Made by a program: the position numbers and the translations under genes. The notes under the pieces are model-generated. The model made no database searches, was not told the origin of the DNA, and was given only the letters and a program-made list of their open reading frames with translations. Shown here piece by piece: positions 18,342-37,615 of a stretch of 64,000 nt of DNA (position 1 is its first letter; every line of letters starts with the position of its first letter). This stretch comes from an uncultured Bacteroidota bacterium. GTDB taxonomy: Bacteria; Bacteroidota; Ignavibacteria; UBA10030; UBA8401. The stretch covers positions 965,798 to 1,029,797 of the forward strand of contig OY970334.1 in NCBI GenBank assembly GCA_963717445.1. Reading direction: 5' to 3'.

Positions 18342-20516
18342 CTACTTCATCAACATCATTTTTTTCACTTCATCTCTGCTCATCGAATGAAGCACATAAA
18401 AATAAGTCCCACTCGGGAGGTTTCTTGCGTCGAAGGTAACGGTGTAGATCTGGTTCGGCTGCGCGACTTGGCTGAACAAGGTTGCGACTTCCTGTCCAAC
18501 AACATTGTATATTTTCAGCGTCGTGCGTTCAGCATTCTTCGCCGCAAAGCTGAATTTCGTGCTCGGATTGAATGGATTAGGATAGTTCTGCGAAAGTGCA
18601 AAATCTTTTGCACTCAATGTCGTGGTTACCTCCACTGCATTGCTGTACGTAAACCTTCCGTCATGATCAATCTGTTTTAGGCGGTACGAATACGTACTTG
18701 CCGCTGAGTTTACATCGGAGAAACTATAACTATGCGCCACATTGGATGTCCCGGCACCATCGACAAATCCTATCTTCGCCCAAGAGCCATTACTATTTTT
18801 CTGGACTTCAAAGCCGCTGTTGTTGATTTCGGAGGCTGTTGTCCATGCCAATTCTACGTTGCGCCCATTTGCCGAACCGGTAAATGAAGTGAGCTCGACG
18901 GGAAGAACATATGTTAGGTTTTCATCTGCACCAATGTACGGATATGTGGCATTCCTTGTATCGCCATCAATATCTGTCGTAATTCCTGAAATTGGCGTGC
19001 CAATGTAGTTTGTATTTACAGCGCTTAAATTTAGATGCAGATCTTCTGAACCAGCCGTTGTACTGAGAAAATCAGTTGGAAATTGATGTGAATTTGGATC
19101 CATACTTGCGACAAAGCCACCTCCCGTGGTAGCACCTTGCAGATTACTCAATGTTTGATAATCTGTTGAGGCAGGACTAAAACTACTACCGGTACCTGCG
19201 GTATAGACCGTCCCACTCGCCGCACAATCAAAATTGTTGTAATTTGAAGCAGTAACGGTTCCATTATTGAAGTACGCGCAATAACTCTTCACGTTAGCGT
19301 TTGAATAGGTATTCTTTAGAATATTATTCTTCATTGTGACTGATGTTGGCGACCCGGTAAAGTAACAACAACCGTTGTTATAATAATAAGTACTAGTTGT
19401 CGTTGTAATGAACACAGAATTGAAATATACATTGTAAACTCCAACCCCATTAACATAGATACCCATAATACGAGTACTAGCAGTATAGCCCGGGGTGAGA
19501 CCACCGCCGTCACCAATTGCGTAAACCATATTGTTATATACCTTCATCACTTCTGAAGCGGTGTTGCACGAAAGGTACATACCCGCAGCATATGTGCTAG
19601 CGACCGTACTATTATTATTTATATCATGGAGTTTGTTATTGTATACATTGATAGTACCATAGCCATATCTTATATATATTGCATAGGCGTTTCTTGCAGT
19701 CGTGCCGCTATAAGTAGCATTTCTGACTTCACAACCAAAAATAGATAGCCCGGTTTGATATTGACCACTTATACCATAGACATCGGCATCAGCTGATCCC
19801 CCCCCGATATTATTCGACAATGCTGAACCTACCACACAATTTTCAACCGTGCAATTAGCGTCAAGAACTGTTGTCGCTTGACCTTTCAAATAAATGCCAT
19901 ACCAGCAATTTGCTACGGTAATGTTATTGTAGGTATTAGTGGAGTTGAGAGCGCTCGCATTGCCATTTGTCTGATTAACACCATAAGTGACGTTGGTATT
20001 GGAACTGCTTAATGTAACAGTGCAATTTTTTATTGTGTTATTTTGCGATCCAGTAGTGGCATTATTTGCAATATAGTACCCATATTCCATCAGTTGGGTC
20101 GCCCCAGAGTTTATTCCATTTTCCTGAAGATCTATCCCATCAAAGGTAATGTAGCTTACGCCGTTGATTTTTATGATATAGTCTGAAGTACCAGTACCTG
20201 TCCCGGCGGTTATGAGCGGGTTTGCCCCTGATCCTGTTTTCTTAAAAAGTATAGGATTCCCCGATGTTCCCGTTGCCGTAATATTTCCAGCAGTTGGTGA
20301 TCCAAAAGTTTCTGTCCAATTATCAGGGACATCAAATTCGACCCCACCACTTCCAACGCCAGAAGTATTTAATGCGGTGATTGCCGCAGCAATGCTTGTG
20401 TAATCACCACCACTACTCGCAATTGTTTTGATCCCAGTTAGTTGTGCGTTGGTGATTGATACTCCTATGCACAGAATCAGAACGATTGCAAAGAGAAAAT
20501 GCAACATTGTTTTCAT
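18342..20516 (-). CDS. Large secreted N/T/S/G/Y-rich beta-helix-like protein with type A T9SS C-terminal domain; unknown function
   Basis: It has a signal peptide. Near the C-terminus there is an LPVELTSFTGSANGRNVELAWTTASEINNSGFEVQ domain and then LSQNYPNPFNPSTKFSF...GTYFYVL...VKKMMLMK. The gene is markedly AT-rich, about 38-40% GC against ~52-58% for its neighbours by my eye estimate. Confidence 0.6.
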   Translation of the reverse strand: MKTMLHFLFAIVLILCIGVSITNAQLTGIKTIASSGGDYTSIAAAITALNTSGVGSGGVEFDVPDNWTETFGSPTAGNITATGTSGNPILFKKTGSGANPLITAGTGTGTSDYIIKINGVSYITFDGIDLQENGINSGATQLMEYGYYIANNATTGSQNNTIKNCTVTLSSSNTNVTYGVNQTNGNASALNSTNTYNNITVANCWYGIYLKGQATTVLDANCTVENCVVGSALSNNIGGGSADADVYGISGQYQTGLSIFGCEVRNATYSGTTARNAYAIYIRYGYGTINVYNNKLHDINNNSTVASTYAAGMYLSCNTASEVMKVYNNMVYAIGDGGGLTPGYTASTRIMGIYVNGVGVYNVYFNSVFITTTTSTYYYNNGCCYFTGSPTSVTMKNNILKNTYSNANVKSYCAYFNNGTVTASNYNNFDCAASGTVYTAGTGSSFSPASTDYQTLSNLQGATTGGGFVASMDPNSHQFPTDFLSTTAGSEDLHLNLSAVNTNYIGTPISGITTDIDGDTRNATYPYIGADENLTYVLPVELTSFTGSANGRNVELAWTTASEINNSGFEVQKNSNGSWAKIGFVDGAGTSNVAHSYSFSDVNSAASTYSYRLKQIDHDGRFTYSNAVEVTTTLSAKDFALSQNYPNPFNPSTKFSFAAKNAERTTLKIYNVVGQEVATLFSQVAQPNQIYTVTFDARNLPSGTYFYVLHSMSRDEVKKMMLMK

Positions 20517-20670: not shown

Positions 20671-20693
20671 CCGGTTCGACAATTGTCGAAACC
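20671..20693 (-). terminator. Near-perfect palindrome GGTTCGACAA|TTGTCGAA(A)CC immediately after the stop of the 1277-aa gene, followed on the transcribed strand by a T-rich tract
   Basis: Read directly. On the minus strand the hairpin is followed by ...TATTTGTTTGTCTATTTT. Confidence 0.45.
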
Positions 20694-23600
20694 TACTTAA
20701 GCAACATCATCTTCTTTACTGCAACAAAATCTCCAGCATGGATCCGGTAAAAATAGACCCCCGATGCTCGACCGTCCTGGGTGGAAAAGGTCACGGTGTA
20801 GCTCCCCGGCTGCTGCATCTTGTTGACAAGCGTCGCCACTTCCCGCCCCAGCACATCGTAGACAATAAGTGAAACCCTGCTCGCCTTCGGCAACTGATAA
20901 AATATCTTTGTCGAAGGGTTGAAGGGGTTGGGATAATTCTGCGCCAGGCTGTATTCTTTTGGAATGTTGGAAAGCTCGTCCTCGACCGACGTGATCGCGC
21001 CCAATTTCCCTATCGCGAAATAACCGAAGCTTGTTATGCCTGCACGAGAGAGTGTGTACGGTTGAGTAGTGAATTGATAGGAATAGATTCCCGTTCCAAC
21101 CTCAGCGGTATCCGGAAGGTGCACAATCAGATCATTTGTTGTCCGACTCGCTGCGAACGTCGTGTCCTCTTGCGACGCCATCCAGCCGAATTGAAGTGTC
21201 GCATTGCTGCCGCCCGGAGTCTTTTCGGTGATGTCCCATTTCAGCTTCACACGACCGTTGCCGCTCCTCGTCCCTCCGACAGAATCTGGAACAACGGACA
21301 CAGAAAAGGTGTCGACGGTCCCAGCATTCGTGATCCAGACGGGAGAATACGCAGCCGCAGTCCCGACGGGGAAAAGTGTTTGGGCCGCGCCGACTCCATA
21401 CCGTGTTACGCTTCCACCGCTGTCTGTCGCAATATACCGGAATGTCGATGCGCCGTTGATCGCGACTGCTGCCAGATTCTTCGATCCGACAAAAAATTTT
21501 CCTACGGTCAGCGCAAGAGTTCCGTTGACTGTCGTTTTTGAAGAAAGTCTCACCCCAAGTGTGTCGCTGATCGTGAGATTATTTACGGTATCCGGAAGAA
21601 GTACGCCGGTTTTTTGAGGAGCAAGGCCGTCGAAAGTATAGTTCGCGCTCTTGCTCAGCGTCTTCACACCCATGGTGGCCAGAGAACTGTCCAACCCGTT
21701 CACATGGCCCGATTCCAGCGTTGCCCCGGGCGAGAGCGTGAACGTTCCGGTTCCACCCAGCACGCTCGTGCCCATGGTGAGAGTTGTGCCGCCGCTGACT
21801 TCAAGCGGAAGTCCCCCTCCGCCGTATGTCACGTTCGAGAGCGTCAACGTCTGACTGCCGGCTTTTGCGAAGACAAGCTTCGCAAATCCGCCACGCGTGG
21901 TCAGCGTCGAATTGGCTGTCGTCGCATTAGAGAGAGAAAGATTCCCTGCGTATAAACACCAGACAGTGTTCCCGGATCCAGCCTGGTTCCCCTCGCTGAT
22001 TGAGAAATTGCCGCCGGTAACTGAAACGTTTCCGAAATGATACACGCTGTCGCTCGTAGCAAGGCTAGTTCCCTGCACTCCAAAATTACCCCCTTGCACA
22101 ATGACGTCGCCGTTAATCGTCAGCGCACTGTTAGAATTGCCGAAAAGGTACACTTGCCCGGTATTGGTATTAACCACTTTGAAATACCCGCCAAGAGTGT
22201 CTCCTCCAAAACCGAGAATCGTGTTCGCAGTTTGGTTGGGGCAATTCCATTCGACATTGTAGAAATTCTGATTTGTCCCGCCGGCGAACGAGGTCGCACC
22301 CCTGATCCCGCTGATACGTAGAAGCGATCCGTTGCTCCATGTTGCTGTCGGGATCGTGCCGCCGTTCTGAGCATGTTCATACATCCCACCGTTACCGACA
22401 ACAAGCGTAGCTCCGGTAGCGAGCGTTAGAGTTCCGGCGTTCACGAGAGAGCCGAGGACTGTAAGGTCCGTCCCCGTCCCGTCCGCGACAACGAGCGTTT
22501 TCGCCGAATCGATTTTCAGCGTTCCGCCCGTGTTCACCGTAATTTGATCCGCATACTCGCTGTCGGAGACGTCAACGGTGTGGCCGGTTTGAATAGAAAT
22601 GATACTATCGCTCGCACTCGGGGCGACCGGTGCCGGGTAAACCCAAATTGTTCCGTTGTTCCGCTCCCATGTGTTTACATCCGACCAAAGGCCCGACTGA
22701 TGCGAACGATAGTCTCCGTCTCCCGCAACGAACCCGGTAAAATTACCGACGGCAAAAGCACCGAATGCCGTGATGCCGCCGCGCGCAACGGTGTACGGCG
22801 CCGTGGCGAGCTGCGAGGTATAACTTCCTGTGCCGACTTGTGTCGTATCCGACAAGCGAAAGATTTTCGCATTCCCGGCGCGGTCCACAGAGAAGATCGG
22901 ATCTTCCAGAGAGGAAACCCAACCGAACTTTAGCGCGGCATTACTCCCGCCTTGAGTATTTTCAGCGATGTTCCATTCCACTTTTACTCTCCCCCCTCCA
23001 TTTTTTGTTCCCCCCAGAGTATCCAAAACTACACCAGCGGTGATTGTGTCGACCGTGCCTGTGTTTGTGATCCAGAACGGTGCGTACCCTCCCGATATGC
23101 CGACGGGGAAACCTATCTGCGAGGATCCAACACTGTTCACCCTGAGCGTACCGCCGCTGTCCGTCGCGACGTAACTGTTCGTAGATCCCCCCGCCGTAGA
23201 ATTTGCAATGATATTCTTTGTGCCGATTTCCAAAATGCCGTTGGTGAGCGTAAGTGTGCCGTTGATGGTATCGGACTTCGGGAGTGTGACACCTGCGGGA
23301 TTATTGATCGTGAGATTCTTGACAGTCGTCGGCATTAACGAGCCCATCACCTGCGCAGCCATCCCGTTGAATGTGTAGCTTGCTGCACTGCTAAGCGTCT
23401 TAACACCCGTATTTGAAAGCGTGCTGTCCAACCCTCCGGTGTGTCCAGATTCGAGCGTCGCCCCTGTGTCGAGAACAAAAGTCCCGGAGCCACCAAGAAC
23501 ACTTGTCCCCATAGTTAGCGTTGAAACCTTGCTGACTTCTACCGGGCAGCCGCCTGCAAACGCTACTCCAGAGAGGGTCATCGTCTGTTTGCCCGCCTTC

Positions 23601-24526
23601 GCGAAAACAAATTTCGCACCGGCTGCATTTGAGTTCTGAGTCGTTGCGTTTGACATCGAGAAATTGCCGTAGAGGTTCCAAACAGCCGTCCCGGTTCCTC
23701 CTTGGCTCCCGCGCGAGACTGAGAAGTTCGTGTAAGAGTTGTTTGCCGGATTTCCAGTGACAGTAATGTTGCCCGCCACATTGATGATAATAGTAGTTCC
23801 TGCATTGCTTGTACCGTTCGATGTAACGCCGACAAGCGCCGATGAGGTTGAGGCGCTACCATCGACGGTCAGATTGCCGCCGATGTTCACCGTATCCGAT
23901 ACGCCGGAGGCGTTGGGCGCGCACAATTGCCACCTCCCTGACCCAGTGTTCTGCACCGTGATGTTGCCGGCAATATTCAAAGTGCCCCCCGCTGTGTTCC
24001 ATCCGAGGTTCAAGTTACCAGACCATGAGGGGCAATTGACCGTCAAGTTGTAAAACGCCTGAGTCGCATTAAGTCCAGTTGTCGAACTCGTGATGCCGGT
24101 GATCAAACACGTTGAGCCCGTTTTCCACGTTGCCGTAGGAATACCTTGTCCGGAGTTTGACGGATGTGCAAACTCGTACGTTGCCCCGCTATCTACCGTT
24201 ATCGAGCCAGAGACCACGTTGATGTACGCCTGATCTTTTACGTATCCATTGACAACGATTGCCGATTTTCTGAGAGTGTCAGGATTTCCGGCAGTCAACG
24301 TCACTATGTGCCCGTCCTGGATTGTAATCGTGCCTGCATTACTATCCGGAGGAGCAACAGCCGCATTCCAGGCAGAACCATCAAAGGTCTGCCACGTCGC
24401 CGCGACATTCCAATTACCCGATCCCGAAGATCGAAAGTCTCCCGCGACTTGACCTAAAGCCGGCATCGCTGCACAAAGAATGACAACGAATGTCAATCCT
24501 GCCAGAAAAGTAAAATTCGTTTTCAT
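20693..24526 (-). CDS. 1277-aa secreted protein built from an internally duplicated ~550-600 aa module, with type A T9SS C-terminal domain; unknown function
   Basis: Module 1 starts GDFRSSGSGNWNVAATWQTFDGSAWNAA and module 2 starts GDGDYRSHQSGLWSDVNTWERNNGTIW. The two modules are collinear, for example KFVFAKAGKQTMTLSGV against KLVFAKAGSQTLTLSNV. The C-terminus reads LAQNYPNPFNPSTKIFY...GVYFYRI...VKKMMLLK. Confidence 0.65.
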   Translation of the reverse strand: MKTNFTFLAGLTFVVILCAAMPALGQVAGDFRSSGSGNWNVAATWQTFDGSAWNAAVAPPDSNAGTITIQDGHIVTLTAGNPDTLRKSAIVVNGYVKDQAYINVVSGSITVDSGATYEFAHPSNSGQGIPTATWKTGSTCLITGITSSTTGLNATQAFYNLTVNCPSWSGNLNLGWNTAGGTLNIAGNITVQNTGSGRWQLCAPNASGVSDTVNIGGNLTVDGSASTSSALVGVTSNGTSNAGTTIIINVAGNITVTGNPANNSYTNFSVSRGSQGGTGTAVWNLYGNFSMSNATTQNSNAAGAKFVFAKAGKQTMTLSGVAFAGGCPVEVSKVSTLTMGTSVLGGSGTFVLDTGATLESGHTGGLDSTLSNTGVKTLSSAASYTFNGMAAQVMGSLMPTTVKNLTINNPAGVTLPKSDTINGTLTLTNGILEIGTKNIIANSTAGGSTNSYVATDSGGTLRVNSVGSSQIGFPVGISGGYAPFWITNTGTVDTITAGVVLDTLGGTKNGGGRVKVEWNIAENTQGGSNAALKFGWVSSLEDPIFSVDRAGNAKIFRLSDTTQVGTGSYTSQLATAPYTVARGGITAFGAFAVGNFTGFVAGDGDYRSHQSGLWSDVNTWERNNGTIWVYPAPVAPSASDSIISIQTGHTVDVSDSEYADQITVNTGGTLKIDSAKTLVVADGTGTDLTVLGSLVNAGTLTLATGATLVVGNGGMYEHAQNGGTIPTATWSNGSLLRISGIRGATSFAGGTNQNFYNVEWNCPNQTANTILGFGGDTLGGYFKVVNTNTGQVYLFGNSNSALTINGDVIVQGGNFGVQGTSLATSDSVYHFGNVSVTGGNFSISEGNQAGSGNTVWCLYAGNLSLSNATTANSTLTTRGGFAKLVFAKAGSQTLTLSNVTYGGGGLPLEVSGGTTLTMGTSVLGGTGTFTLSPGATLESGHVNGLDSSLATMGVKTLSKSANYTFDGLAPQKTGVLLPDTVNNLTISDTLGVRLSSKTTVNGTLALTVGKFFVGSKNLAAVAINGASTFRYIATDSGGSVTRYGVGAAQTLFPVGTAAAYSPVWITNAGTVDTFSVSVVPDSVGGTRSGNGRVKLKWDITEKTPGGSNATLQFGWMASQEDTTFAASRTTNDLIVHLPDTAEVGTGIYSYQFTTQPYTLSRAGITSFGYFAIGKLGAITSVEDELSNIPKEYSLAQNYPNPFNPSTKIFYQLPKASRVSLIVYDVLGREVATLVNKMQQPGSYTVTFSTQDGRASGVYFYRIHAGDFVAVKKMMLLK

Positions 24527-25945: not shown

Positions 25946-27802
25946 TTATCGGATGATGACTTCATCTTTTTTCACTTCCGGATCCAGCTCAACAGCCTGT
26001 TTCATTTTTGATAAGTCTGTTTCACTGATACCGATATTTTTCGTTTTACTTCCGCTTGCCTTTAGAAAAAGCTTTGCAGCCGGCGGAAATGAAATCTTCT
26101 TAAGTTGAACTGAATCGGCATTGTTTACGGTAAATGCCGGACCATTCGAAAATGACAACCGGACATTATTCATTTCGATATGTTCCGCATCCTGCAGCAA
26201 ACAACCTGTCGTAGAATTGATGGCGATGCCGTTTAGACGGACGTTCTTTACCGGCATTTCCGGCAACCCGCGAACGAACACTGCACCCCTTGCACCATCG
26301 CACGTAATATTTTGAATCTGAAAGTCGCGAAATTCCGGTGTGCGAATGACGTCCGGATTATTATCATTGTTTTGATCGTAGTACATATCGAAAAGAATCG
26401 CTTCGTTGACGATATCTTTCATCCGGATGCCGTCCACGTACACTTTTTCAACCACTCCACCTCGATCGCCAGCCGATTTGAAACGAAGACCGATATCGGT
26501 GCCGATGAACGTGCAGTTCTTGACTGAAATATTTCGTGCCCCGCCATACGACTCGGAACCGATCACGAACCCGCCATGGCCGTCGTAGACAATGCAGTCT
26601 GCAACAACGATGTTTTCGCATGCCGGGCTTCCAGAATTCGCATCGCTCGCCTTGCCCGGCTTCACACAGATAGCGTCATCCCCCACGCTCATCACTGTAT
26701 TGTAAAGGAGAAGGTTTCTGGTCGAGTTAATATCGATGGCGTCTGTGTTCTGCCCCCATGACGGGTTGTTCACGGTGACATTGCGGATGACAACCTCTTC
26801 ACATCGTGTCGGAGCCAGCGTCCATCCAGGCGCGTTAGTGAAGGTTGAACCGTCGAACAAGACTCGCTTGCAGTCATCCAACGCAACCATCACCGGCCGA
26901 AGGAATTCTCTTGCCCCTGCGATTTGCACCGGGGAAGGCTTCTTGTTGACTTTCTTCAAATCTTTCAGATAATCTTCTCCGTTCATCGCCTCTTTCGAAG
27001 GCCACCACATTTTTCCATCCGAAGTTACGGCCCCCCCCGATGCCACTAATTCTTTCCACTGCCGGTCCGTCAATTTCTCTTTCTTAACGGGATGCCAGTA
27101 CTGTCCGTTGCCGTCGATCAAACCTCTTCCGGTAATAGCAACATCGTGAAGACCGCTGCCATAGATCATCGGTACACATTTCTCCGAGATCTTCGGCCGT
27201 TTGAACATCGGATAGTCTTCGAACCGTTTGCTGAACAGAATCACGGCGCCACTGTCGAGATGAAATTCAATGTTGCTCTCCAATCTGATTGGGCCTGTAA
27301 GCCACATCCCCGGGGGGATCTCCACCACTCCACCCCCCTTAGCCAAACAGTGTTGAATCGTAGAAGCGATGGCGTCGGTATTCATGGTATTGCCGTCGCC
27401 GACTGCCCCAAAGTCCGTGATCGTAAGCCGGGTATTTGGAATGTCCGGAATTTCTATTTCCGGCATAGTGAAGGGAAGATTAGATGTATACGCCTTCACT
27501 GCAGGATCCGTCCCAGCGTCAATAGGACTTGGCACCGTGAAAAAAATCAAGACGATTATTGGAAGCCACCTCAACAATGCCTCGCTGGTTGCCCTTCGAC
27601 GCGTGGCACAAAACAACTGCGCCACTTGGTCAGAGTGAACAGATTCCTTGTTCATCCTGAGTAAGTGATCCTCGCCGAGTCGAGTCTTCGACCGCTCGAA
27701 GAGCGGGAGAACGCATCGAAGGATGGCTTTTCGTATTTTTGAGATGGCATCCGGTTTCATCAAAAGATTTCTTTTCATCGTAATTCCTTTTAGATGTGGC
27801 AC
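25946..27802 (-). CDS. Glycoside hydrolase family 28 (polygalacturonase-like)
   Basis: GH28 blocks NTDAIDI, GDDAICVK, GHGGFVIGSE and RFKS are present. The track start is a GTG and includes a ~100-aa N-terminal extension. The true start is probably an internal ATG before the hydrophobic segment WLPIIVLIFFTVP. Confidence 0.75.
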   Translation of the reverse strand: MPHLKGITMKRNLLMKPDAISKIRKAILRCVLPLFERSKTRLGEDHLLRMNKESVHSDQVAQLFCATRRRATSEALLRWLPIIVLIFFTVPSPIDAGTDPAVKAYTSNLPFTMPEIEIPDIPNTRLTITDFGAVGDGNTMNTDAIASTIQHCLAKGGGVVEIPPGMWLTGPIRLESNIEFHLDSGAVILFSKRFEDYPMFKRPKISEKCVPMIYGSGLHDVAITGRGLIDGNGQYWHPVKKEKLTDRQWKELVASGGAVTSDGKMWWPSKEAMNGEDYLKDLKKVNKKPSPVQIAGAREFLRPVMVALDDCKRVLFDGSTFTNAPGWTLAPTRCEEVVIRNVTVNNPSWGQNTDAIDINSTRNLLLYNTVMSVGDDAICVKPGKASDANSGSPACENIVVADCIVYDGHGGFVIGSESYGGARNISVKNCTFIGTDIGLRFKSAGDRGGVVEKVYVDGIRMKDIVNEAILFDMYYDQNNDNNPDVIRTPEFRDFQIQNITCDGARGAVFVRGLPEMPVKNVRLNGIAINSTTGCLLQDAEHIEMNNVRLSFSNGPAFTVNNADSVQLKKISFPPAAKLFLKASGSKTKNIGISETDLSKMKQAVELDPEVKKDEVIIR

Positions 27803-29334
27803 TATTCATCGCTCCTCACAGTTTTCGCATCCCGCAACAGCCAACGAAACAAATTCTCCGCTGCCTTATAGTTCTCGAACTCACCCGGTAATTTCCTGTT
27901 ACCATAGTATTCGTTGTAAAACCACGGGTCTCCGACCGCAACAACGCTTCCGTTCCCAAATTTCGAATAGCCGATGATCACGTCTCCTTTGTCTGCCAGA
28001 ATCGGCTCTGCATTTCCCGAGAGTTTCAATGTTGAAATCTCTTTGAGATAAATCTTGTTGACGCCGTTGAACATCGGATGCAATGGAAGATTGGCAAAAG
28101 CACCCATGTCGAAATTGTTTCCTTGAACTCGATTACGGCTATCTTCGTTGAAATGGATTCCAAATTGTTCCGCAAGCATATTGAGATGCTGGAATTCGGC
28201 GTTCCCTTTGTCGTTTCCAAACAAGAGAAGAATCCCTCCGTTGCGTACCCATTCAACGATGGCCCTCCTCGCCGATGCTTCGATATAGTTGGGATGAGCG
28301 CTCTCTAACGGAGTGTCCGGGTCGACAATCATGTAGATACTTGCACGCGACAAATTTTCCGGGGTCGGCTCGACCTCAAGAGTGTCGACATCGGCTCCCA
28401 ATTCCATAATCGTTTTTCCCAGCTCGGAAAACCCGGAGTTGGCCGTATCTTCCCATACATAGTGATAGCGAATAGGTAGGTTATCTGGACCGGCCTTCCT
28501 TTCATTGTTGAAGAAATAATCGAGGAGGACGAGCTTACCCTTCCCGACATCCGGCGAGAGGTCCGTCGTCAACAACATCGATTCAACCGAAAGATGGAGC
28601 TCCTTGATACCGTCAACGACCAAACTTGCAATCGTCTTCGCCCCCTCAAACGTGAAATGAGTATTATCCTGCTTACCATCCGGCAAGGCTTTGTATTTTC
28701 CGGGTGGAACCCAAAGAAAAAGGCTTTTCGATTTTTCGGGACCAAGATCGCCGATCAATGCAATGCTCTTAGCATCTAGGTCAATCAGCGGAACTTGTTC
28801 CTCCTTTGCGACTTGCCGAACAACTTCAGAATATTCTTTATGTGTCTCAAGCGCCTTGTTATCTCGATCAAATTTTCTTCGAGCGACAGGCGTGAGAAGA
28901 AGCGGGAGTGCGCCTTTCATTCGAGTCTCATGGACGAATTTTAGAAGATTATTCCTGTACTCGGTTTCGGGAGCTGCATATCTGGAAGTATCATTTTTCT
29001 TTTCGTCGTTATGTCCGAACTGGATGAAGACGTAATCACCCGGCTTAAGCTTGTCGAGAACAATTTGCCATCGTCCCTGATTGAGGAAACTCCTCGTGCT
29101 CCTCCCGTTCACCGCATGGTTCTCGATAGCCACACGGTGGTCGAAGAACATCGGAAATACCTGTCCCCATCCCCGTTCAGGGTTATCGACGAGCGGTTTG
29201 TCTGCCATCGTTGAGTCGCCCACGAGAAATATCCTTACAGCAGAACCGGAGAAGAGAAACCCGCACAGCACGACGGCACTCATGACGAGAACGGCGAAAC
29301 AGAAGAAAAGCTTTTCCGAGGTTCGATGTTTCAT
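27802..29334 (-). CDS. SGNH/GDSL hydrolase, rhamnogalacturonan acetylesterase-like (CE12), fused to a ~250-aa C-terminal domain of unclear function
   Basis: Signal peptide/TM, then IFLVGDSTMADK...GWGQ, the block I/II of an SGNH esterase. The C-terminal half has a GATase1-like / DUF4350-like appearance. ATG at 29334. Confidence 0.6.
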   Translation of the reverse strand: MKHRTSEKLFFCFAVLVMSAVVLCGFLFSGSAVRIFLVGDSTMADKPLVDNPERGWGQVFPMFFDHRVAIENHAVNGRSTRSFLNQGRWQIVLDKLKPGDYVFIQFGHNDEKKNDTSRYAAPETEYRNNLLKFVHETRMKGALPLLLTPVARRKFDRDNKALETHKEYSEVVRQVAKEEQVPLIDLDAKSIALIGDLGPEKSKSLFLWVPPGKYKALPDGKQDNTHFTFEGAKTIASLVVDGIKELHLSVESMLLTTDLSPDVGKGKLVLLDYFFNNERKAGPDNLPIRYHYVWEDTANSGFSELGKTIMELGADVDTLEVEPTPENLSRASIYMIVDPDTPLESAHPNYIEASARRAIVEWVRNGGILLLFGNDKGNAEFQHLNMLAEQFGIHFNEDSRNRVQGNNFDMGAFANLPLHPMFNGVNKIYLKEISTLKLSGNAEPILADKGDVIIGYSKFGNGSVVAVGDPWFYNEYYGNRKLPGEFENYKAAENLFRWLLRDAKTVRSDE

Positions 29335-31676: not shown

Positions 31677-33446
31677 TTATCGCATGAGGAGAAGTTTGAT
31701 AGACTGCTCTTGACCGCCGGCATTTAGCCTGCAAATGTACACTCCACTTGCCCAGCGATCCGCTGAAACCAGCACGCTGTATTCGCCCGGACCGCGAACA
31801 CCCTGGTCGAGGAGGGAGATTTTCCTTCCGAGGATATCGAAAAACTCCAGTACTGCATGCATCGTTGCAGAGAGTCGATACCGGACTATTGTCGCAGGGT
31901 TAAATGGATTCGGATAATTTTGATACAGCTCAAAAGCGGCTGGAACCAAGCTTCGTCCGGCGGGCACAGCAGTTGGCGTGCCGGCCAGTTCGTTGAGATA
32001 TTCTTCGAGTTTGGTGTATCCGCTCGCGTCAACGATATTCCGGTCTAAAGGATCGTACGGGTTCAAGCCGTGTGCGATTTCCCATGTATCGGGCATGCCG
32101 TCATGATCAGAATCGGGCGGAGCAGGGAGCGAATTAAGCACCGGCCAGCCCCCGACATCGCTTTGGGAATCAATGATACCATGAGGAACGGTTGTATCAA
32201 GACCGTTGCTTATTTCATACGCATGAGTATGGCCGCTGTATGTTGCGGTCCGATGTGCAACTTCGTACACAATTCGGCTATCTATCGTGTCGCGCTTCGG
32301 GAGCGTGGCGCCCGCATTCGCTAACACGAGCGTATATGCATCCTGCGGCGAATTTGTTGTCACTTCGGGAAAAGGAAATGGAGTAAATGCTTGTGCGGTG
32401 CTCATCCTGAAACCGGAGTATTGCGGCGCAACCCCTTTCCAGTTGTCGTAGGTGACCGCTGTGTCCCCGTCAACATAATTTCCGGCGATGTAAAACGTAC
32501 CTGTTGAATCACCCGATCCGTATGGGTTAAAAATTCTGCTCTTCACATCGGCTTTCGTAGCGGGTCCGTATTTGTAATAATTGTTAACGATATTGATTTC
32601 GCTCTCCTCACCTCCATACGAACTGTTAAAGCCCCAGTTGTAAATCACGTTGTTCCGGAAATCGAGATTCTGCGAAGAGTCTGTGCCCGAGCCTGCCGGA
32701 GTTGGTCCGGAGAAGCGCGGGTTTCTGCTCGAGTGGTGAGCGAATAAATTGTGATGGTACGTCGAATTGAAACCTCCCCAAATTCCGCCGTAGCCGTGAG
32801 CTCCCTTTGGATCGTAACTATTATAAAGGCTTTCGCTGATAAGACACCACTGGATCGTGAGACTGTCATATCCGTAAAATGAAAGGGATTCGTCGAGACT
32901 CCAACTTGCAGAGCAATGGTCAACGATAATATCTTTCTTGTTGTGTGAAATTTGACTATACCCGTTGATCGCATCGTCAACAGGCTTGCCGGCTCCCTGA
33001 TCGCCGAACCGGGATCGGATGTATCGGATAATAACTTGATTCGCGCTGACGTTGAACGTGAAATTTCTCAGGCAGATTCCGTCTCCCGGAGCAGTCTGGC
33101 CGGCTACCGTGATTGAATCTTTCGTAATTTTCAAAGGCTCAACCAGTGCGATAGTGCCTGAAACGCGGAAGACAACGGTCCTCGCCCCGCTCTGATTGAT
33201 TGCCCATCGAAGTGTGCCGACAACGTTGGTGGCGGTCGTGTCGAGTAGCGTCGTTACTTCCAGCACTTTCCCGCCACGTCCGCCCCATGTGTACATTCCG
33301 CCCCCCTCCGCTCCGGGAAAGGCAAGTTGCTGCGGAAAGACCGATGGCACAGCAACGCACAACAGCATCACTGACGGCAACAAAATCCTGAACCTATTAC
33401 GACAAACCATGGTTTCCTTCATTTGAGAAACAAAGAGGTGCAACAC
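31677..33446 (-). CDS. Pectate lyase (PL1-like) with type A T9SS C-terminal domain
   Basis: AFPGAEGGGMYTWGGRGGKV...TLRWAIN...RTVVFRVSGTI...VAGQTAPGDGI is the PL1 N-terminal signature. The C-terminus reads LYQNYPNPFNPATIVRY...GVYICRL...IKLLLMR. The true start is probably an internal ATG (MKETMV or MVCRNRF, ~33410-33422). Confidence 0.75.
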   Translation of the reverse strand: MLHLFVSQMKETMVCRNRFRILLPSVMLLCVAVPSVFPQQLAFPGAEGGGMYTWGGRGGKVLEVTTLLDTTATNVVGTLRWAINQSGARTVVFRVSGTIALVEPLKITKDSITVAGQTAPGDGICLRNFTFNVSANQVIIRYIRSRFGDQGAGKPVDDAINGYSQISHNKKDIIVDHCSASWSLDESLSFYGYDSLTIQWCLISESLYNSYDPKGAHGYGGIWGGFNSTYHHNLFAHHSSRNPRFSGPTPAGSGTDSSQNLDFRNNVIYNWGFNSSYGGEESEINIVNNYYKYGPATKADVKSRIFNPYGSGDSTGTFYIAGNYVDGDTAVTYDNWKGVAPQYSGFRMSTAQAFTPFPFPEVTTNSPQDAYTLVLANAGATLPKRDTIDSRIVYEVAHRTATYSGHTHAYEISNGLDTTVPHGIIDSQSDVGGWPVLNSLPAPPDSDHDGMPDTWEIAHGLNPYDPLDRNIVDASGYTKLEEYLNELAGTPTAVPAGRSLVPAAFELYQNYPNPFNPATIVRYRLSATMHAVLEFFDILGRKISLLDQGVRGPGEYSVLVSADRWASGVYICRLNAGGQEQSIKLLLMR

Positions 33447-33465: not shown

Positions 33466-34998
33466 TTACTTTACCAGCATCATGCGCTTGATATCAACCG
33501 AACTGCCGGCTTGAATTCTGCAAAGGTAAATTCCCGAGCTGAGCCTCGACGCATCGAACGACAAAGAATAAACTCCTGCACTTTCATAACCGGAGAACAA
33601 GGTCATTACCTCCTGCCCGAGAATATTGAAGACCTTCGCTGTAACAAAAGCAACTCGCGGAATGCCGTACGATATTTTTGTCGACGGGTTGAAGGGGTTA
33701 GGATAATTCTGGTCGACAAAAAATCTTTGCGGGAGCGACGCCCGATCCGCCGGAACGAGCGTGACCGGGATCTTCAAGATTCCCCCCCCGTATGAGATTG
33801 TCGCATTCGGGCCGAGTGTGAAAGGAATCGTATTGTCGAACTGGCCCGCCGTCAGAGTGAGAATCCCGTTGATGGTCGTTGCCTGAGAAAGCGTAACGCC
33901 CATTGCGTTATTGATCGTCAGGTTGTTGACTGTGGCAGGCATGAGCAATCCCGTCACCTGCGCCGAATCGCCATCAAACGTGTAATTGGCAGCACTGCTC
34001 AATATCTTTGCCCCTCCGTTGTTGAGGTTCCCCTCGAAACCTTTTGGAGATCCTGTGATCAATGTCCCGCCAGCTTCAAGCGTGAAACGAATATAGGCGC
34101 TTGCGCCGAAAGAGCTGGTATCCATATCGACGATCGCACCGTTTCGAATGTCGAAATAGATGTTCGACATTGAGCCGACTGAGCCGGCCTTGACAAACGA
34201 TTGCAATTTCGTTCCATTGATTATTAACGAGTCGGGTTTCGTCGAATCGGAATTTGTAGTAAATGTTCCACCGAGTGCGCCAATATTTCCTCCAACAAAC
34301 CAGTTACACGTAGCTCCGCTTCCATTCGCGAGCTGGAATTTTCCGTTTGAGATAATGCTGCCTTTGAGATTGACTACCACAGTGTCTATACCACTTGAAC
34401 CAGTCGCAGTAAGGTAGCCGGTTGAATCATCGATGACTATGTCGCCGTCAATAGTAACTGTCTCGAACGTTGGTGCAACTCCACTCGCTGTGAAACGGAA
34501 CGCTTGCGAGTTTGATTTCATAACCCTCACGGTTCCCCCGATTGTATTCCCGTTCATCGCAAGGTTTAATCCCGCACTCTGACCAGGGCAGTTCCATGTC
34601 AGGTTGTAGAAATTTTGATTGCCGTTTGAAGGTGCTTTGCTCGTGACGCTATCGATGAGGCAGGTCGAACCTGTGCCCCACGTTGCCTTGGGAAGCATGC
34701 CGCCGTTGATGTCATGCTCATAAATTCCATTGTTGCCGAATACGACCTTCGAAGAATCGAATGTGCCAATTCTTCCGCTGAACGATCTCAGCGTGCCTGT
34801 GATTGTGACAGGAACATCCAAATAGATGGAGTCAGTGCTCTGAATGGTGATCGTCCCCGAACCTGTCGGAACGTTTCCCCCTGTCCATGTCGCCGACGCG
34901 CTCCAGTTCCCGCCTCCCGTTCCGTTGCTTGTCTGCGCAACGCCGAAACCGTAGCAGAGGAGCAAGAGCATTCCTGCAATAAGTTGCGTTCGTTTCAT
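33466..34998 (-). CDS. Secreted protein, a single copy of the module duplicated in 20693..24526, with type A T9SS C-terminal domain
   Basis: NGTGGGNWSASATWTGGNVP...KATWGTGSTCLIDSVTS...QNFYNLTWNCPGQSAGLNL parallels ...ATWKTGSTCLITGITSS...QAFYNLTVNCPSWSGNLNL in the 1277-aa protein. The C-terminus reads VDQNYPNPFNPSTKISY...GIYLCRI...IKRMMLVK. Confidence 0.6.
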   Translation of the reverse strand: MKRTQLIAGMLLLLCYGFGVAQTSNGTGGGNWSASATWTGGNVPTGSGTITIQSTDSIYLDVPVTITGTLRSFSGRIGTFDSSKVVFGNNGIYEHDINGGMLPKATWGTGSTCLIDSVTSKAPSNGNQNFYNLTWNCPGQSAGLNLAMNGNTIGGTVRVMKSNSQAFRFTASGVAPTFETVTIDGDIVIDDSTGYLTATGSSGIDTVVVNLKGSIISNGKFQLANGSGATCNWFVGGNIGALGGTFTTNSDSTKPDSLIINGTKLQSFVKAGSVGSMSNIYFDIRNGAIVDMDTSSFGASAYIRFTLEAGGTLITGSPKGFEGNLNNGGAKILSSAANYTFDGDSAQVTGLLMPATVNNLTINNAMGVTLSQATTINGILTLTAGQFDNTIPFTLGPNATISYGGGILKIPVTLVPADRASLPQRFFVDQNYPNPFNPSTKISYGIPRVAFVTAKVFNILGQEVMTLFSGYESAGVYSLSFDASRLSSGIYLCRIQAGSSVDIKRMMLVK

Positions 34999-35086
34999 AA
35001 GATGTCTCCTTAAAAAGATTTCAAAAAAAATCGTTTTGTTTAGAGTGATTTTGCTCCGATATAAAAAATCATGCCGCGCATTTCCT

Positions 35087-36574
35087 TTACCAAGGAATGC
35101 CGTAGGAAAAATCGGCTACAATGGTATGCCGGATGTCTCCATTGATGCTGATGGCGTCCGCCCATGTATCGGTGTACTTCATGTTCGAATACTCATACGC
35201 GAGATTGACAGTCCCCCCAGCGATCATGACGCCGACGCCGAAAGAATAGACCGAATAGGTCACCGGTTCTCCTTCAAGAGGATTTCCTTCCGGCTCGTAC
35301 ACTTCGGCTTCTTCTCTAGCACCACCACGCAGCATAAGCCAGGAGAACGCAGAGAATTCAAACCCTGCGTGAAAAAGATTTGCCGACAACCACGGATTTG
35401 TCGTCGACCCTGTGGAATTGGTGAACGTCGTCGAAGCGTATGGTCGAATTTCATATCCCATACCGAGCAACAAGTTTTCCCTGAGAGCGATGGATATCCC
35501 GAGCGTACCGCGGAAGGGAATAACAGTTTTATCCTGGCCGCTGATGATCTCGGTCCTCGATGAGCCTGTAGTGTCAGTTTGAATTTCGGTATTGAATTTC
35601 CGCGTGATCGTTGTTGGAACTTTTGCCGAGAAGCCCAGGGTTACATAGCGGCTATGGTATAATCCGCTGAACGTGATTTCTTGGCCGCTGTAATCCAACG
35701 TCCCGGTGGAGATGACCCGGTTATAGATTGAATCCAGCCGGAAATACGAACTATAAAATATCAGCTTTCCCCGGTCGACTCGCGACTCAAAATCATTGCT
35801 GCTTCCGCTCAGAATCATTCCGCTCACGCCGATTGAAATCTTCTCGGAAAGCGCCGCGGAAAGAGCGAGGCCGTAGCCGTAAATCGAACCTACGCGCGAT
35901 TGGATATTCTGATACCATTGAACCGGTATCGCCAGTGAGTCGCTATTGTTGGCAGGAATAGTCAACGTACCGTTCTTCACGGAAAGTATGGATGGAGATA
36001 AAACATTGTTGTTCTGGAAATACCAGTCGAGGTCCGCATATTCGACCGAACCGATCCCTACGCCGAACTTCATTCCATTGAAAGTAAAGGGGAAGCCCGC
36101 AAAGCCCTGAACGGAAGGTATTTTCGACTTCGCATGAGACCAGTTTGGACCGATGTTGTCATACGGACGTTGAACCGTATCCCCCGCGTTGTACGTTGTT
36201 CCAGTATCGTACTTTGGGGTACTAATATAACCGGTCAATCCTTCCATAAGGAGGCTGAAGTTCGAGTAATATTTCAGGGGGGAGTATTGTTGCGTCTGCT
36301 CTTCACTCGACGAAAGTTGGTAATCACCGATTGAGACCTGAAGTCCCTGGAGCGACTGCAACGAAGCAGGATCGCTGAACATCAGACTGACATCGTTCCC
36401 TAGGCCGATAACGATGCCCCCGGCTCCGCGCGAAGCAGCCGACTGCGGGGTAAAATGGTCAAGCCCCTGAATCGTCAACGGCTGGCCGAAGCCCTGCGCA
36501 AAGATATTCGGCACAGCAAGGAATAACAGCAACAACATCTCGAAAAATAGGAATATCGAAAAGCATCGCTTCAT
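35087..36574 (-). CDS. Outer-membrane beta-barrel protein, FadL/PorV-like
   Basis: Signal peptide, then AASRGAGGIVIGLGNDVSLMFSDPASL, the FadL/PorV-type N-terminal motif. The rest alternates amphipathic strands and ends FSYGIPW. Its start codon shares a base with the stop of the upstream barrel gene. Confidence 0.45.
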   Translation of the reverse strand: MKRCFSIFLFFEMLLLLFLAVPNIFAQGFGQPLTIQGLDHFTPQSAASRGAGGIVIGLGNDVSLMFSDPASLQSLQGLQVSIGDYQLSSSEEQTQQYSPLKYYSNFSLLMEGLTGYISTPKYDTGTTYNAGDTVQRPYDNIGPNWSHAKSKIPSVQGFAGFPFTFNGMKFGVGIGSVEYADLDWYFQNNNVLSPSILSVKNGTLTIPANNSDSLAIPVQWYQNIQSRVGSIYGYGLALSAALSEKISIGVSGMILSGSSNDFESRVDRGKLIFYSSYFRLDSIYNRVISTGTLDYSGQEITFSGLYHSRYVTLGFSAKVPTTITRKFNTEIQTDTTGSSRTEIISGQDKTVIPFRGTLGISIALRENLLLGMGYEIRPYASTTFTNSTGSTTNPWLSANLFHAGFEFSAFSWLMLRGGAREEAEVYEPEGNPLEGEPVTYSVYSFGVGVMIAGGTVNLAYEYSNMKYTDTWADAISINGDIRHTIVADFSYGIPW

Positions 36575-37611
36575 TATATTTGCGCTCCCAGGCTGATGCG
36601 ATGAGCGCTTCCCAGATATGTCCCCATCGATCCGTAGCTGTAATCGAGAGAGAGTTTTACAGAACCAACAGCTTGCTTCACTCCACCACCGACCGTCAAT
36701 CCTTCATAATCGTAATTGAACTTATACCCTGCTCTCAGTGCAAAAACGCCGGCGAACTCATACTCCACTCCGAGGTGTTCTTGCTGTTCGTAATCATTCG
36801 GCTGGTAGAGGTCAAAGGCGACGCCAATACGATTCTCCTCGTCGGTAGCCAGCAATGCATCTTTTCCAATCAGGTCTGCTGCAACTCCCCACCGGAAGAG
36901 GAGAGGAACAGGGCTGGATTGTATTGCATACGTGACGTTCGGTCCAAAATTCTGAACGGACGCGCCGATTTGAACCGATCGAAAACCAGTGTTGTATCGA
37001 ATTCCAAAATCGTAGATCACTCCGCTGGCCCACGTTTTCACTTCCTCAAACGAACCCTGACTTACCTGGGCCAAAACCATCTGCCCATTGTATAAAGATT
37101 CATGAGCATATTTTACCGTCAACCCTGTTGAAAATTTGTCGGTGAGGCTTCGCGCATAGCTCAACCCCACAAGATAACTGAACGGGTGGAACGTGTTCCC
37201 GGTCAATCCCGGGTTGACTTCCTGATTGATATACGGACGCGTGGCAACAGCTTCATCAAATTCTCCATAATCAACGTATTGAATCTGGAGGCCGAGCGCG
37301 CCAAGATTCCCGATCGGTGTAGCGTATGACAACGCTCCCTGACGCGTATCAAAAATCCATTGGATAAAGGTCGACGAAAATTCCTGAGTTTCCACGAGCG
37401 CCAGACCGCTCGGGTTCCAAAAAACTGCGTCGGCCCCTGACGCCCAGACACTGTATGCGTCGCCTAATGCAGTTGCTCTCGCAACGGGCATCACTTCCAA
37501 AAATTGCATCGAAGTGCTTCCGACTTTTTGTGAGAATGCATTAGACGATAACATGGCTAAAGCGACAATCGGCAAGGAGTTTTTTATCATTCTGTTCATC
37601 GTTGCGATCAT
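36574..37611 (-). CDS. Outer-membrane beta-barrel protein, FadL/PorV/PorP-SprF-like; candidate partner of the adjacent type-B sorting-domain protein
   Basis: Signal peptide, then ARATALGDAYSVWASGADAVFWNPSGLA. About 345 aa and ends in an aromatic-rich strand. It lies 5 nt downstream of the type-B sorting-domain gene. Confidence 0.45.
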   Translation of the reverse strand: MIATMNRMIKNSLPIVALAMLSSNAFSQKVGSTSMQFLEVMPVARATALGDAYSVWASGADAVFWNPSGLALVETQEFSSTFIQWIFDTRQGALSYATPIGNLGALGLQIQYVDYGEFDEAVATRPYINQEVNPGLTGNTFHPFSYLVGLSYARSLTDKFSTGLTVKYAHESLYNGQMVLAQVSQGSFEEVKTWASGVIYDFGIRYNTGFRSVQIGASVQNFGPNVTYAIQSSPVPLLFRWGVAADLIGKDALLATDEENRIGVAFDLYQPNDYEQQEHLGVEYEFAGVFALRAGYKFNYDYEGLTVGGGVKQAVGSVKLSLDYSYGSMGTYLGSAHRISLGAQI

Positions 37612-37615
37612 CCGA

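Follow-up and report, generated by a model that had tools for sequence, protein, structure and literature searches.

A recurrent two-domain module in T9SS-targeted proteins of an Ignavibacteria pectin locus, with a possible part in glycan capture

Introduction

In Bacteroides PULs, the surface glycan-binding proteins (SusE/F-type) are lipoproteins with an Ig-like/β-sandwich build, and work together with SusC/SusD. β-structures of another kind recur among surface and pectin-active proteins: the right-handed β-helix is the fold of the PL1, PL3, PL9, GH28 and CE8 enzymes, with an Asp triad in GH28, an Arg/Lys base and Ca2+-binding acids in the lyases, and Asp/Asp/Gln/Arg in CE8, whilst the β-helical stalks of autotransporter passengers hold their heads away from the outer membrane. 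In the eukaryotic protein TMEM2, the G8 region forms the start of a right-handed β-helix, followed by a β-sandwich without known relatives, and no catalytic activity has been shown (PMC10206443). As for cargo of the T9SS, the PorV and PorQ barrels retain the uncleaved C-terminal sorting domains (CTDs) of PorU and PorZ (PMC10202324).

Uncultured Ignavibacteria-type Bacteroidota and KSB1 bacteria contribute to the turnover of plant polymers in soils, sediments and digesters, but their way of capturing and importing polysaccharides is not understood; the loci that we examined contain no SusD-like gene. Here, we analyse a 64,000-nt stretch of DNA from one such uncultured bacterium (the window), in which a sequence-only reading had pointed to a duplicated module in T9SS cargo proteins.

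Results

The internal duplication of the 1277-aa protein, as translated from the window, is real: aa 36-596 and aa 611-1176 align with 45% identity (270/594 columns, E=7e-136), which bears out the two collinear, roughly half-identical halves that the sequence-only reading had described. The similarity it saw in the nucleotides is detectable but weak (65-67% identity over 193-261 nt), and the peptides of two antisense ORFs that it called near-identical share 52% identity over 67 aa, merely mirroring the homology of the sense strand. The exact protein is absent from the assembly index; an ortholog (P0133) shares the N-C-N-C-CTD layout and is 68% identical across 1279 columns. The duplication is old, as each half has ~70% identity to its own counterpart in a homologous protein, with the two halves separately conserved. 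We also considered an artefact of assembly or a collapsed repeat, and dismissed it in view of this separate conservation, the low identity of the halves at the DNA level, and the recurrence of the layout in independent clusters. The features of the locus are collected in Table 1.

Table 1. Coordinates of the N- and C-domain genes and of the adjoining outer-membrane cassette in the window
Feature	Position	Strand	Basis
1277-aa gene: putative signal peptide, N1, C1, N2, C2, T9SS CTD	20693..24526	-	ORF, self-alignment, ortholog P0133
Putative Sec signal peptide, aa 1-26, MKTNFTFLAGLTFVVILCAAMPALGQ	24449..24526	-	hydrophobic core then ALG-Q in translation
N copy 1, aa 36-425	23252..24421	-	phmmer/tblastn mapping; row of N alignment A3
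C copy 1, aa 426-596	22739..23251	-	52% identity to C copy 2, E=3e-55; row of alignments A2 and A5
N copy 2, aa 611-1003, predicted β-solenoid	21518..22696	-	AF2 model of aa 597-1185
C copy 2, aa 1004-1176, predicted β-sandwich	20999..21517	-	AF2 model; invariant positions in A5
Type A T9SS C-terminal sorting domain, aa 1198-1277	20696..20935	-	PF18962 E=1.8e-6; TIGR04183 E=4.7e-10
510-aa gene: putative signal peptide, N (33835..34935), short linker, T9SS CTD (33469..33705), no C	33466..34998	-	ORF, alignments, HMMs
Four-gene cassette immediately upstream of the 510-aa gene	35087..42869	-	Pfam and NCBIfam, order conserved
TonB-receptor-like, 1006 aa	39849..42869	-	cassette member
747-aa protein, weak PorZ-like C-terminus	37616..39859	-	cassette member
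PorV/PorQ-family barrel, 345 aa	36574..37611	-	NF033709, 6h3i_F
495-aa protein, no family assigned	35087..36574	-	cassette member

What had been taken for one module is instead two domains, an N domain of ~390 aa and a C domain of ~170 aa, which are separable and independently shuffled. In alignment, the 510-aa protein covers no more than the opening ~390 aa of either repeat (35% identity, E=1e-41 to 7e-45), and domain mapping across the window found no C domain in it; as a supposed third copy of the module with a sorting domain, it has the N and CTD parts but not the C part, and the window as a whole contains three N and two C copies, no more, rather than three full modules. The peptide blocks quoted as conserved are present, although the 510-aa protein has NWSASATW in place of a literal NWxxAxTW. 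Orthologs of the 510-aa protein occur in loci L007-L012 (68-79% identity). A neighbouring 724-aa T9SS protein was also considered as a homologue of the module and set aside, its alignment covering the CTD alone.

The AlphaFold2 model of aa 597-1185 gives an N domain with many short strands throughout (pLDDT 92.0, pTM 0.89), predicted to form a β-solenoid. A separate model of C copy 2 (pLDDT 89.6, pTM 0.86) predicts a β-sandwich, for which Foldseek found no significant match in the PDB. The only Foldseek neighbours of the N model are generic right-handed β-helix proteins, and these are weak (TM≤0.27): the top PDB matches are Ag43, the TibA self-association domains, Hbp, EspP, IgA1 protease and pertactin (E≥1.4e-3, TM 0.15-0.25). 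N has no significant Pfam, NCBIfam or PDB counterpart by sequence, profile or Foldseek, profiles of N and C gave only chance-level matches to PDB sequences, and the N-domain proteins of the window matched nothing but the CTD in Pfam and NCBIfam, even at E≤1; searching a word-indexed database with the C profile added nothing, as mostly short fragments were recovered. Neither the domain family nor the cassette described below is mentioned in the literature that we searched. By these comparisons, N and C are previously undescribed domains without a family-database entry. The suggestion of a new family devoid of known CAZyme motifs stands, as neither domain matches Pfam, NCBIfam or the PDB, and N matches no CAZyme family; a profile match to a characterised CBM or enzyme family, which that suggestion had named as the finding that would speak against it, was looked for and none was found.

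The N family comprises at least 4,904 clusters at 50% identity. Its members carry from one to eight or more N domains, after which a T9SS sorting domain usually comes (it is the last domain in 76 of 130 representatives). The architectures are N-CTD, which is the commonest, N-C-CTD, N-N-CTD, N-N-C-CTD, N-C-N-C-CTD, and arrays of up to eight or more N, the largest protein being 7481 aa long. Giant multi-copy proteins with Ig-like/ASH, FG-GAP, fn3 and InlB-B-repeat domains are also among them.

Across 20 diverse N domains, including those of the 1277-aa protein (alignment A3), no D, E, K, R or H reaches 90% conservation, let alone invariance; columns average 47% identity in the N and 59% in the C alignments. 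About half of N is S/T/N/G/Q, with few charges, and its conserved Trp, Asn, Ser and Gln may simply be core ladders of a β-helix. N is neutral to acidic in a charge/pI comparison, a weak trend without a basic signature, and therefore gives no electrostatic hint of pectate binding. The stand-alone N-CTD subfamily does conserve three basic residues, namely R in SRGSQ (29/30), R in GxxRWQ (27/30) and K in FVFAK (26/30), but the second repeat of the 1277-aa protein has SEGNQ for SRGSQ, and the 510-aa copy, a divergent member, lacks all three; no acidic cluster for Ca2+ or acid/base catalysis was found in the 30 stand-alone proteins. The invariant positions of C (D, D, R, W, E, W, E, Y, R in alignment A5) have what looks like a composition typical of ligand-binding sandwiches.

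The 1277-aa and 510-aa proteins each end in a type A CTD, in line with the T9SS targeting that the sequence-only reading had proposed, scoring above the curated cut-offs that define T9SS type A cargo: 39.3 and 38.5 bits for TIGR04183 (cut-off 23), and 28.6 and 35.7 bits for PF18962 (cut-off 27). Both translations begin, by eye, with a typical hydrophobic N-terminus, and no lipobox cysteine follows the putative signal peptide in the N-terminal sequence. Of the T9SS machinery, a PorV/PorQ-family protein is encoded in the window; the core genes (SprA/Sov, PorK-N, PorU) lie outside it. The N-domain proteins would be displayed at the cell surface.

The surroundings are indeed those of a pectin locus, with genes for CE8, two GH28, GH105, a PelZ-like lyase, PL9, an SGNH esterase, KduI, UxaC and DUF4861, and in the loci overall N is tightly linked to polysaccharide-degradation genes. 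This link is not specific to pectin: N-C stands behind a GH10 xylanase domain in three proteins (P0170, P0191, P0205), behind GH43 plus an F5/8 type C (CBM32-like) domain in three loci (L035, L038, L043), and co-occurs with CE8 as a third type of catalytic domain. Within these fusion proteins, the module comes after the glycoside hydrolase or esterase domain and before the sorting domain, and a CBM6-bearing GH43 is encoded in a neighbouring gene.

Upstream of the 510-aa gene lies a four-gene outer-membrane cassette (Table 1), whose barrel, to judge by its matches to NF033709 (E=4e-63) and to the PorV structure 6h3i_F (E=1.2e-6), is a genuine PorV/PorQ-family protein. Loci were collected with the 510-aa protein as query, leaving out L047-L083 (half of the returns), which matched the CTD only. 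Among the 45 N-bearing loci, the PorV-like gene is found in 31, the 495-aa protein in 28, and the TonB-like and 747-aa proteins in 25 each, alongside GH105 (23), GH28 (20), CE8 (15) and PL9 (14). In every cassette-bearing locus (28/28), the next gene set after the cassette on its strand includes an N gene, at a distance of 150-430 nt in 27 cases; this statistic is conditional on the presence of N because the loci were gathered with N-domain queries. The window contains no SusD-like gene. We posit that the PorV/PorQ-like barrel encoded in the locus could tether the N proteins.

Discussion

How does this module compare with described systems? One point of contact is the G8 domain (PF10162), known from TMEM2, CEMIP and PKHD1. 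In one relative (P0163), the N-terminal cap (GxWSxxxTW...P...I.I..G..V), exactly at the start of the N domain, matches positions 1-44 of the 124 in the G8 model (E=1.3e-6, 28.7 bits), and weak matches occur in 3 of the 20 aligned N domains (E≥0.0024). However, only the first third of the model is matched by these relatives, and the three window copies stay below the gathering score, with no G8 match even at E≤1. The overall layout of TMEM2, a helix and then a sandwich, is that predicted for N plus C, although 8C6I is not among the Foldseek or profile matches of N; moreover, G8 proteins have inserted lectin-like domains that N lacks, and belong to a eukaryotic membrane context rather than to bacterial T9SS cargo. 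With the SusE/F-type proteins, the N proteins share a position directly downstream of outer-membrane importer genes and, often, their occurrence as diverged paralogs, yet they come without SusD, are type A CTD cargo, have a β-solenoid as their predicted main domain, and have a PorV/PorQ barrel in their cassette. Lastly, N-C takes the slot in multimodular enzymes that CBMs take on GH10 and GH43 (CBM6, CBM32/F5_F8 type C), and co-occurs with F5/8 type C, but no CBM model or structure is matched by N or C. We know of no CBM family with a β-helix fold.

Considering this context and these architectures, we give an even chance to the reading that N-C proteins are a non-catalytic, surface-displayed module with a role in glycan capture or another accessory role. 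The 1277-aa protein would be exported by Sec, pass through the T9SS by way of its sorting domain, and display two tandem copies of a rigid N-C unit on the cell surface. This unit would be a general-purpose accessory of plant-polysaccharide systems in uncultured Bacteroidota of the Ignavibacteria type and in KSB1, with the stand-alone N-CTD form of the 510-aa type as the fixed fifth gene behind the TonB-receptor/PorV-PorQ-type cassette. The module would most likely capture or hold polysaccharide beside the enzymes and the importer without cutting it. In function it would then correspond to the surface glycan-binding proteins of Bacteroides PULs, with the T9SS route in place of a lipid anchor as its means of tethering. 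Binding by N or C would fit their context and architecture, although structure-based comparison with CBMs and lectins gave no match and no binding site. A bolder version, which we regard as doubtful, is that N, with or without C, founds a carbohydrate-binding family of β-helix fold and also forms, with the cassette, a SusD-independent capture and import machine in which CTDs dock on the PorV/PorQ paralog. In any case, two unannotated domains are now defined, which serve as markers for surface proteins in systems for pectin, xylan and arabinan, and N-CTD is tied to a fixed five-gene outer-membrane unit; if binding is true, CAZyme annotation gains a new accessory-module family, and SusD-independent, T9SS-coupled glycan capture a testable model.

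Could the module instead be a passive stalk, a rigid rod that holds catalytic or binding heads off the outer membrane and has no ligand of its own? The best fold matches of N are autotransporter passenger and stalk helices, one relative weakly matches the AIDA 'probable stalk' family of Pfam (E=0.022), and the composition and the tandem N arrays of giant proteins would suit a rod; the enzyme fusions, with the module between catalytic part and membrane-proximal CTD, fit a stalk equally well. The likeness to Ag43, pertactin and SPATE stalks is, as modelled, that of repetitive surface-exposed β-helices able to carry functional heads, whereas N proteins are secreted by the T9SS, have no translocator β-barrel and show no sequence similarity to them. 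Against a stalk, the commonest form, N-CTD, has nothing to hold up, it is this headless form that is fixed behind the cassette, the 1277-aa protein likewise has no head domain, and conservation of both domains is high for a spacer. We thus think a mere stalk unlikely; were it true, the module would be a useful annotation marker and no more.

The predicted helix also invites the thought of a novel pectin-active lyase, hydrolase or esterase, as the sequence-only reading had allowed, and indeed the weak fold matches of N fall in the class of the pectin-lyase-fold enzymes, N genes lie among genes of these very families, stand-alone copies occur in pectin loci, and their subfamily keeps its two R and one K. 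Yet comparisons by HMM, profile and fold tie N to no CAZyme family, and N has no conserved catalytic Asp/Arg/Lys set and no Ca2+ site, and is found appended beside true catalytic domains of three specificities, in up to eight or more repeats per protein. Because no acidic or basic residue is invariant in N, and with the subfamily's basic residues missing from the 510-aa copy, we consider an enzyme very improbable. There is slightly more to be said for a self-associating adhesin, which would promote cell-cell or cell-particle adhesion and biofilm on plant debris in the manner of Ag43, without specific sugar recognition: the Ag43 and TibA self-association domains head the PDB matches, and the companion domains of the giant relatives are typical of adhesins. 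This, too, seems improbable, as the fold matches are weak, and both the fixed operon place behind a TonB-type importer among enzymes and the enzyme fusions point to the handling of substrate rather than to aggregation.

Two domains that travel separately

Residues 1-610 and 611-1277 of the 1277-aa protein form a single collinear BLASTP alignment, with 270 of 594 columns identical (45%) and E=7e-136, far beyond chance; the internal duplication proposed in the sequence-only reading is therefore real. At the DNA level the likeness of the halves is weak (65-67% identity across 193-261 nt only), and the antisense peptides that had been called near-identical share 52% identity over 67 aa, a mere mirror of the sense-strand homology. 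As for the 510-aa protein, read as a third copy of the module, it matches each repeat across its first ~390 residues only (35-36% identity, E=1e-41 and 7e-45), and the 1277-aa protein once more across the C-terminal sorting domain, the second part of the repeat being absent. By tblastn, the window holds exactly three copies of the first part (N, ~390 aa) and exactly two of the second (C, ~170 aa), so the threefold occurrence claimed for the module stands for N and not for C.

Indeed, when the parts were mapped onto 120 database relatives, what had been described as one module resolved into two domains that move independently. The commonest architecture is N followed directly by a type A T9SS C-terminal sorting domain (N-CTD, ~520 aa), to which the 510-aa gene of the window belongs, and N-C-CTD, N-N-CTD, N-N-C-CTD, N-X-CTD and N-C-N-C-CTD also occur, the last as separate clusters (P0131, P0133 and P0144). 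Repeats 1 and 2 of the window share 71% and 69% identity, respectively, with their counterparts in P0133, versus only 44-49% between sister repeats; it follows that the duplication is old and that each half has been maintained. Of the 130 best representatives, 76 have the sorting domain at their end and 26 contain C, and N reaches 8 or more copies per protein, with protein lengths of up to 7,481 aa. The two window proteins each open with what reads as a typical signal peptide and end in a type A sorting domain scoring above curated thresholds, which supports their predicted targeting to the T9SS.

Outside the window, many relatives of ~745 and ~975 aa (P0051, P0081, P0084, P0088 and others) carry an extra ~250-280 aa between N and the sorting domain, a stretch unlike C and without a match in Pfam. 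On L001, the closest long contig (78% identity), the ortholog of the 1277-aa protein is called as ORFs of 536, 208 and 461 aa, a split that probably stems from assembly frameshifts.

Features of the window and of related loci
Feature	Location	Strand	Description
724-aa T9SS cargo protein	18342..20516	-	immediately downstream of 1277-aa gene
1277-aa protein gene	20693..24526	-	ORF
510-aa SGNH/GDSL esterase-DUF4350 fusion	27802..29334	-	fusion kept in L001, L007-L011
589-aa T9SS cargo protein	31677..33446	-	NCBIfam pectate lyase PelZ E=5e-35, below equivalog cut-off
510-aa protein gene	33466..34998	-	ORF; N-CTD
Five-gene unit	33466..42869	-	TonB-receptor-like 1006 aa, 747 aa, PorV/PorQ 345 aa, 495 aa, N-CTD gene
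TonB-receptor-like barrel			sub-threshold TonB matches, CarboxypepD_reg N-terminus
747-aa protein	37616..39859	-	last ~110 residues weakly PorZ-C-terminus-like (NF052228, E=1e-4)
PorV/PorQ-family barrel			genuine member; NF033709 E=4e-63; F. johnsoniae PorV 6h3i_F E=1.2e-6
495-aa protein			fourth cassette member; unassigned
PD-(D/E)XK nuclease + UvrD-type helicase-nuclease pair	45886..51779	-	AddAB-like; just past upstream GH28 gene
Ortholog of 1277-aa protein	L001:10001-13823		three ORFs
GH43 - F5/8 type C - N - C - CTD	L035:8027-11986, L038:8066-11986, L043:8036-11989		KSB1 and Ignavibacteriota MAGs

A large family outside the known ones

Searches of Pfam and NCBIfam, even at E<=1, returned nothing except the sorting domain, and phmmer and profile searches of PDB sequences gave chance-level matches only. 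The AlphaFold2 model of repeat 2 (N+C; pLDDT 92.0, pTM 0.89, from a 58-sequence alignment) shows many short strands and, after them, a sandwich built of longer ones, and had no Foldseek match in the PDB at E<=1e-3; its best matches were generic right-handed beta-helix proteins, including Ag43, phage tailspikes and autotransporter passengers (TM 0.15-0.25), and BFVD gave matches of the same kind. For C alone (predicted model: pLDDT 89.6, pTM 0.86), the best PDB match had E=0.085 and no CBM was among the matches. The claim that the repeat belongs to no known family thus withstood the Pfam, NCBIfam, PDB sequence and Foldseek searches, and our literature search found no description of the N/C family or of the outer-membrane cassette described below.

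The sole recurrent link is to G8: in the relative P0163, positions 1-44 of the G8 model match at the exact start of N (E=1.3e-6), with weak matches in 3 of 20 aligned N domains and none in the window copies. In TMEM2, a G8 region starts a right-handed beta-helix with an orphan beta-sandwich after it, and activity could not be demonstrated (PMC10206443); this is a useful architectural parallel, not membership. The closest known things to N/C are the G8-capped helix of TMEM2/CEMIP-type proteins, whose cap is partly similar in N relatives only; pectin-lyase-fold enzymes, which N may resemble in fold class alone, their catalytic features being absent from it; SusE/F-type SGBPs, alike only in position and presumed role; and autotransporter stalks, to which the N+C model bears a weak predicted fold similarity.

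Run exhaustively as an HMM over 1.84 billion cluster representatives, the N profile matched 4,904 proteins at E<=1e-3, 3,155 at E<=1e-10 and 1,071 at E<=1e-30. From source names and a genome scan, the hosts are uncultured Bacteroidota (Ignavibacteria/Melioribacter-type), KSB1, Calditrichaceae, Rhodothermales and Paludibacter MAGs. We regard N/C as a very large and unannotated family of accessory domains, borne by the T9SS surface proteins of polysaccharide systems, with a plausible but putative binding role.

Enzyme fusions and the question of catalysis

On wider sampling, the repeat proves not to be pectin-specific, as N-C stands behind GH10 and behind GH43-F5/8 type C, and CE8 co-occurs with it. 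Pfam domains in 33 representatives with unassigned regions included GH10 in 4, F5/8 type C in 2, and GH43 and CE8 in 1 each, alongside Ig-like/ASH, fn3, FG-GAP and InlB-B-repeat domains, and the order GH10-N-C-CTD was confirmed residue by residue in three clusters. A subset of loci with neither the cassette nor pectin genes encodes ~1310-aa proteins in which GH43 and F5/8 type C precede N, C and the sorting domain, their genes adjoining those for GH43-CBM6, GH51-like, GH30-like and SASA esterase proteins. The neighbourhoods in L035, L038 and L043 are of arabinan/hemicellulose type and lack the outer-membrane cassette.

Could N itself be an enzyme? An alignment of 20 diverse N domains has G, W, P, Y, S, Q, F and V as its invariant residues, and no acidic, basic or histidine position conserved at >=90%. 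Among 30 stand-alone N-CTD proteins, the R of SRGSQ (29/30), the R of GxxRWQ (27/30) and the K of FVFAK (26/30) are largely kept; no acidic cluster is conserved in these 30, and the 510-aa copy of the window lacks all three basic residues. This makes a lyase, hydrolase or esterase centre unlikely, and likewise the pectin-active enzyme put forward earlier, judging by the lack of conserved catalytic-type residues in N. The C domain is more conserved (59% mean column identity), and its invariant D, D, R, W, E, W, E, Y and R would be compatible with a ligand site or a structural cap alike.

A conserved outer-membrane cassette

In every sampled locus with the 495-aa gene (28/28), an N gene follows it on the same strand, within 150-430 nt in 27 of the 28; this makes the 510-aa gene number five in a fixed unit, whose gene order is common to these 28 loci from different MAG lineages. 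Among the 45 loci holding an N domain – these counts and the 28/28 being alike conditional on N-based sampling – we found the PorV-like gene in 31, the 495-aa gene in 28, the TonB-receptor-like and 747-aa genes in 25 each, GH105 in 23, GH28 in 20, CE8 in 15 and PL9 in 14. The five-gene unit contains no SusD-like gene, and may be an undescribed T9SS-linked glycan import cassette. The 747-aa protein has no Pfam or PDB match; its C-terminus hints at an uncleaved sorting domain that could dock on the neighbouring PorV/PorQ-like barrel in the manner of PorZ on PorQ.

Display and binding, or a passive stalk?

The 1277-aa protein has two predicted rigid N-C units, a putative signal peptide and a sorting domain, and no catalytic signature; N-C occupies an accessory position in real enzymes, and the N-CTD gene is fixed behind an importer-type cassette. 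We infer T9SS export and surface display of the N proteins, which would then bind or hold polysaccharide close to the enzymes and to the TonB-type importer, perhaps as functional analogues of PUL surface glycan-binding proteins. The main rival is that N-C is a passive stalk, in keeping with the autotransporter-like fold matches and the membrane-proximal position of the module in the fusions; against it, headless N-CTD proteins are abundant and their synteny is fixed. Since N domains are neutral to acidic, net charge is no help in choosing between binding and stalk. One could speculate that the locus-encoded PorV/PorQ paralog tethers one or both of the N-CTD and 747-aa proteins at the importer, because PorV and PorQ barrels hold the uncleaved sorting domains of PorU and PorZ, and a review raises the possibility of specific substrates being kept by cognate PorV-like barrels (PMC10202324).

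The pectin locus and its neighbours

The window is a pectin locus on a single strand, with degradative enzymes (CE8, two GH28, GH105, a PelZ-like lyase and a PL9, both with CTD, and an SGNH esterase), sugar-acid metabolism and associated genes (KduI, UxaC, DUF4861), and regulation and transport (LacI, an MFS transporter, a TonB receptor); relatives on long contigs also lie in pectin/galacturonate loci (6/6). The gene for the 589-aa protein adjoins the N-CTD gene in 14 loci; it has no Pfam lyase match and, from its sequence, is probably a divergent PL1-type lyase. The 724-aa protein contains repeats that are Asn-rich and beta-helix-like, and the sorting domain is its only recognised domain; homology to N or C was rejected, as the CTD alone aligns. 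With a GC of 0.43, its region is richer in AT than the 1277-aa gene (0.54). Lastly, the AddAB-like pair marks the end of the carbohydrate locus.
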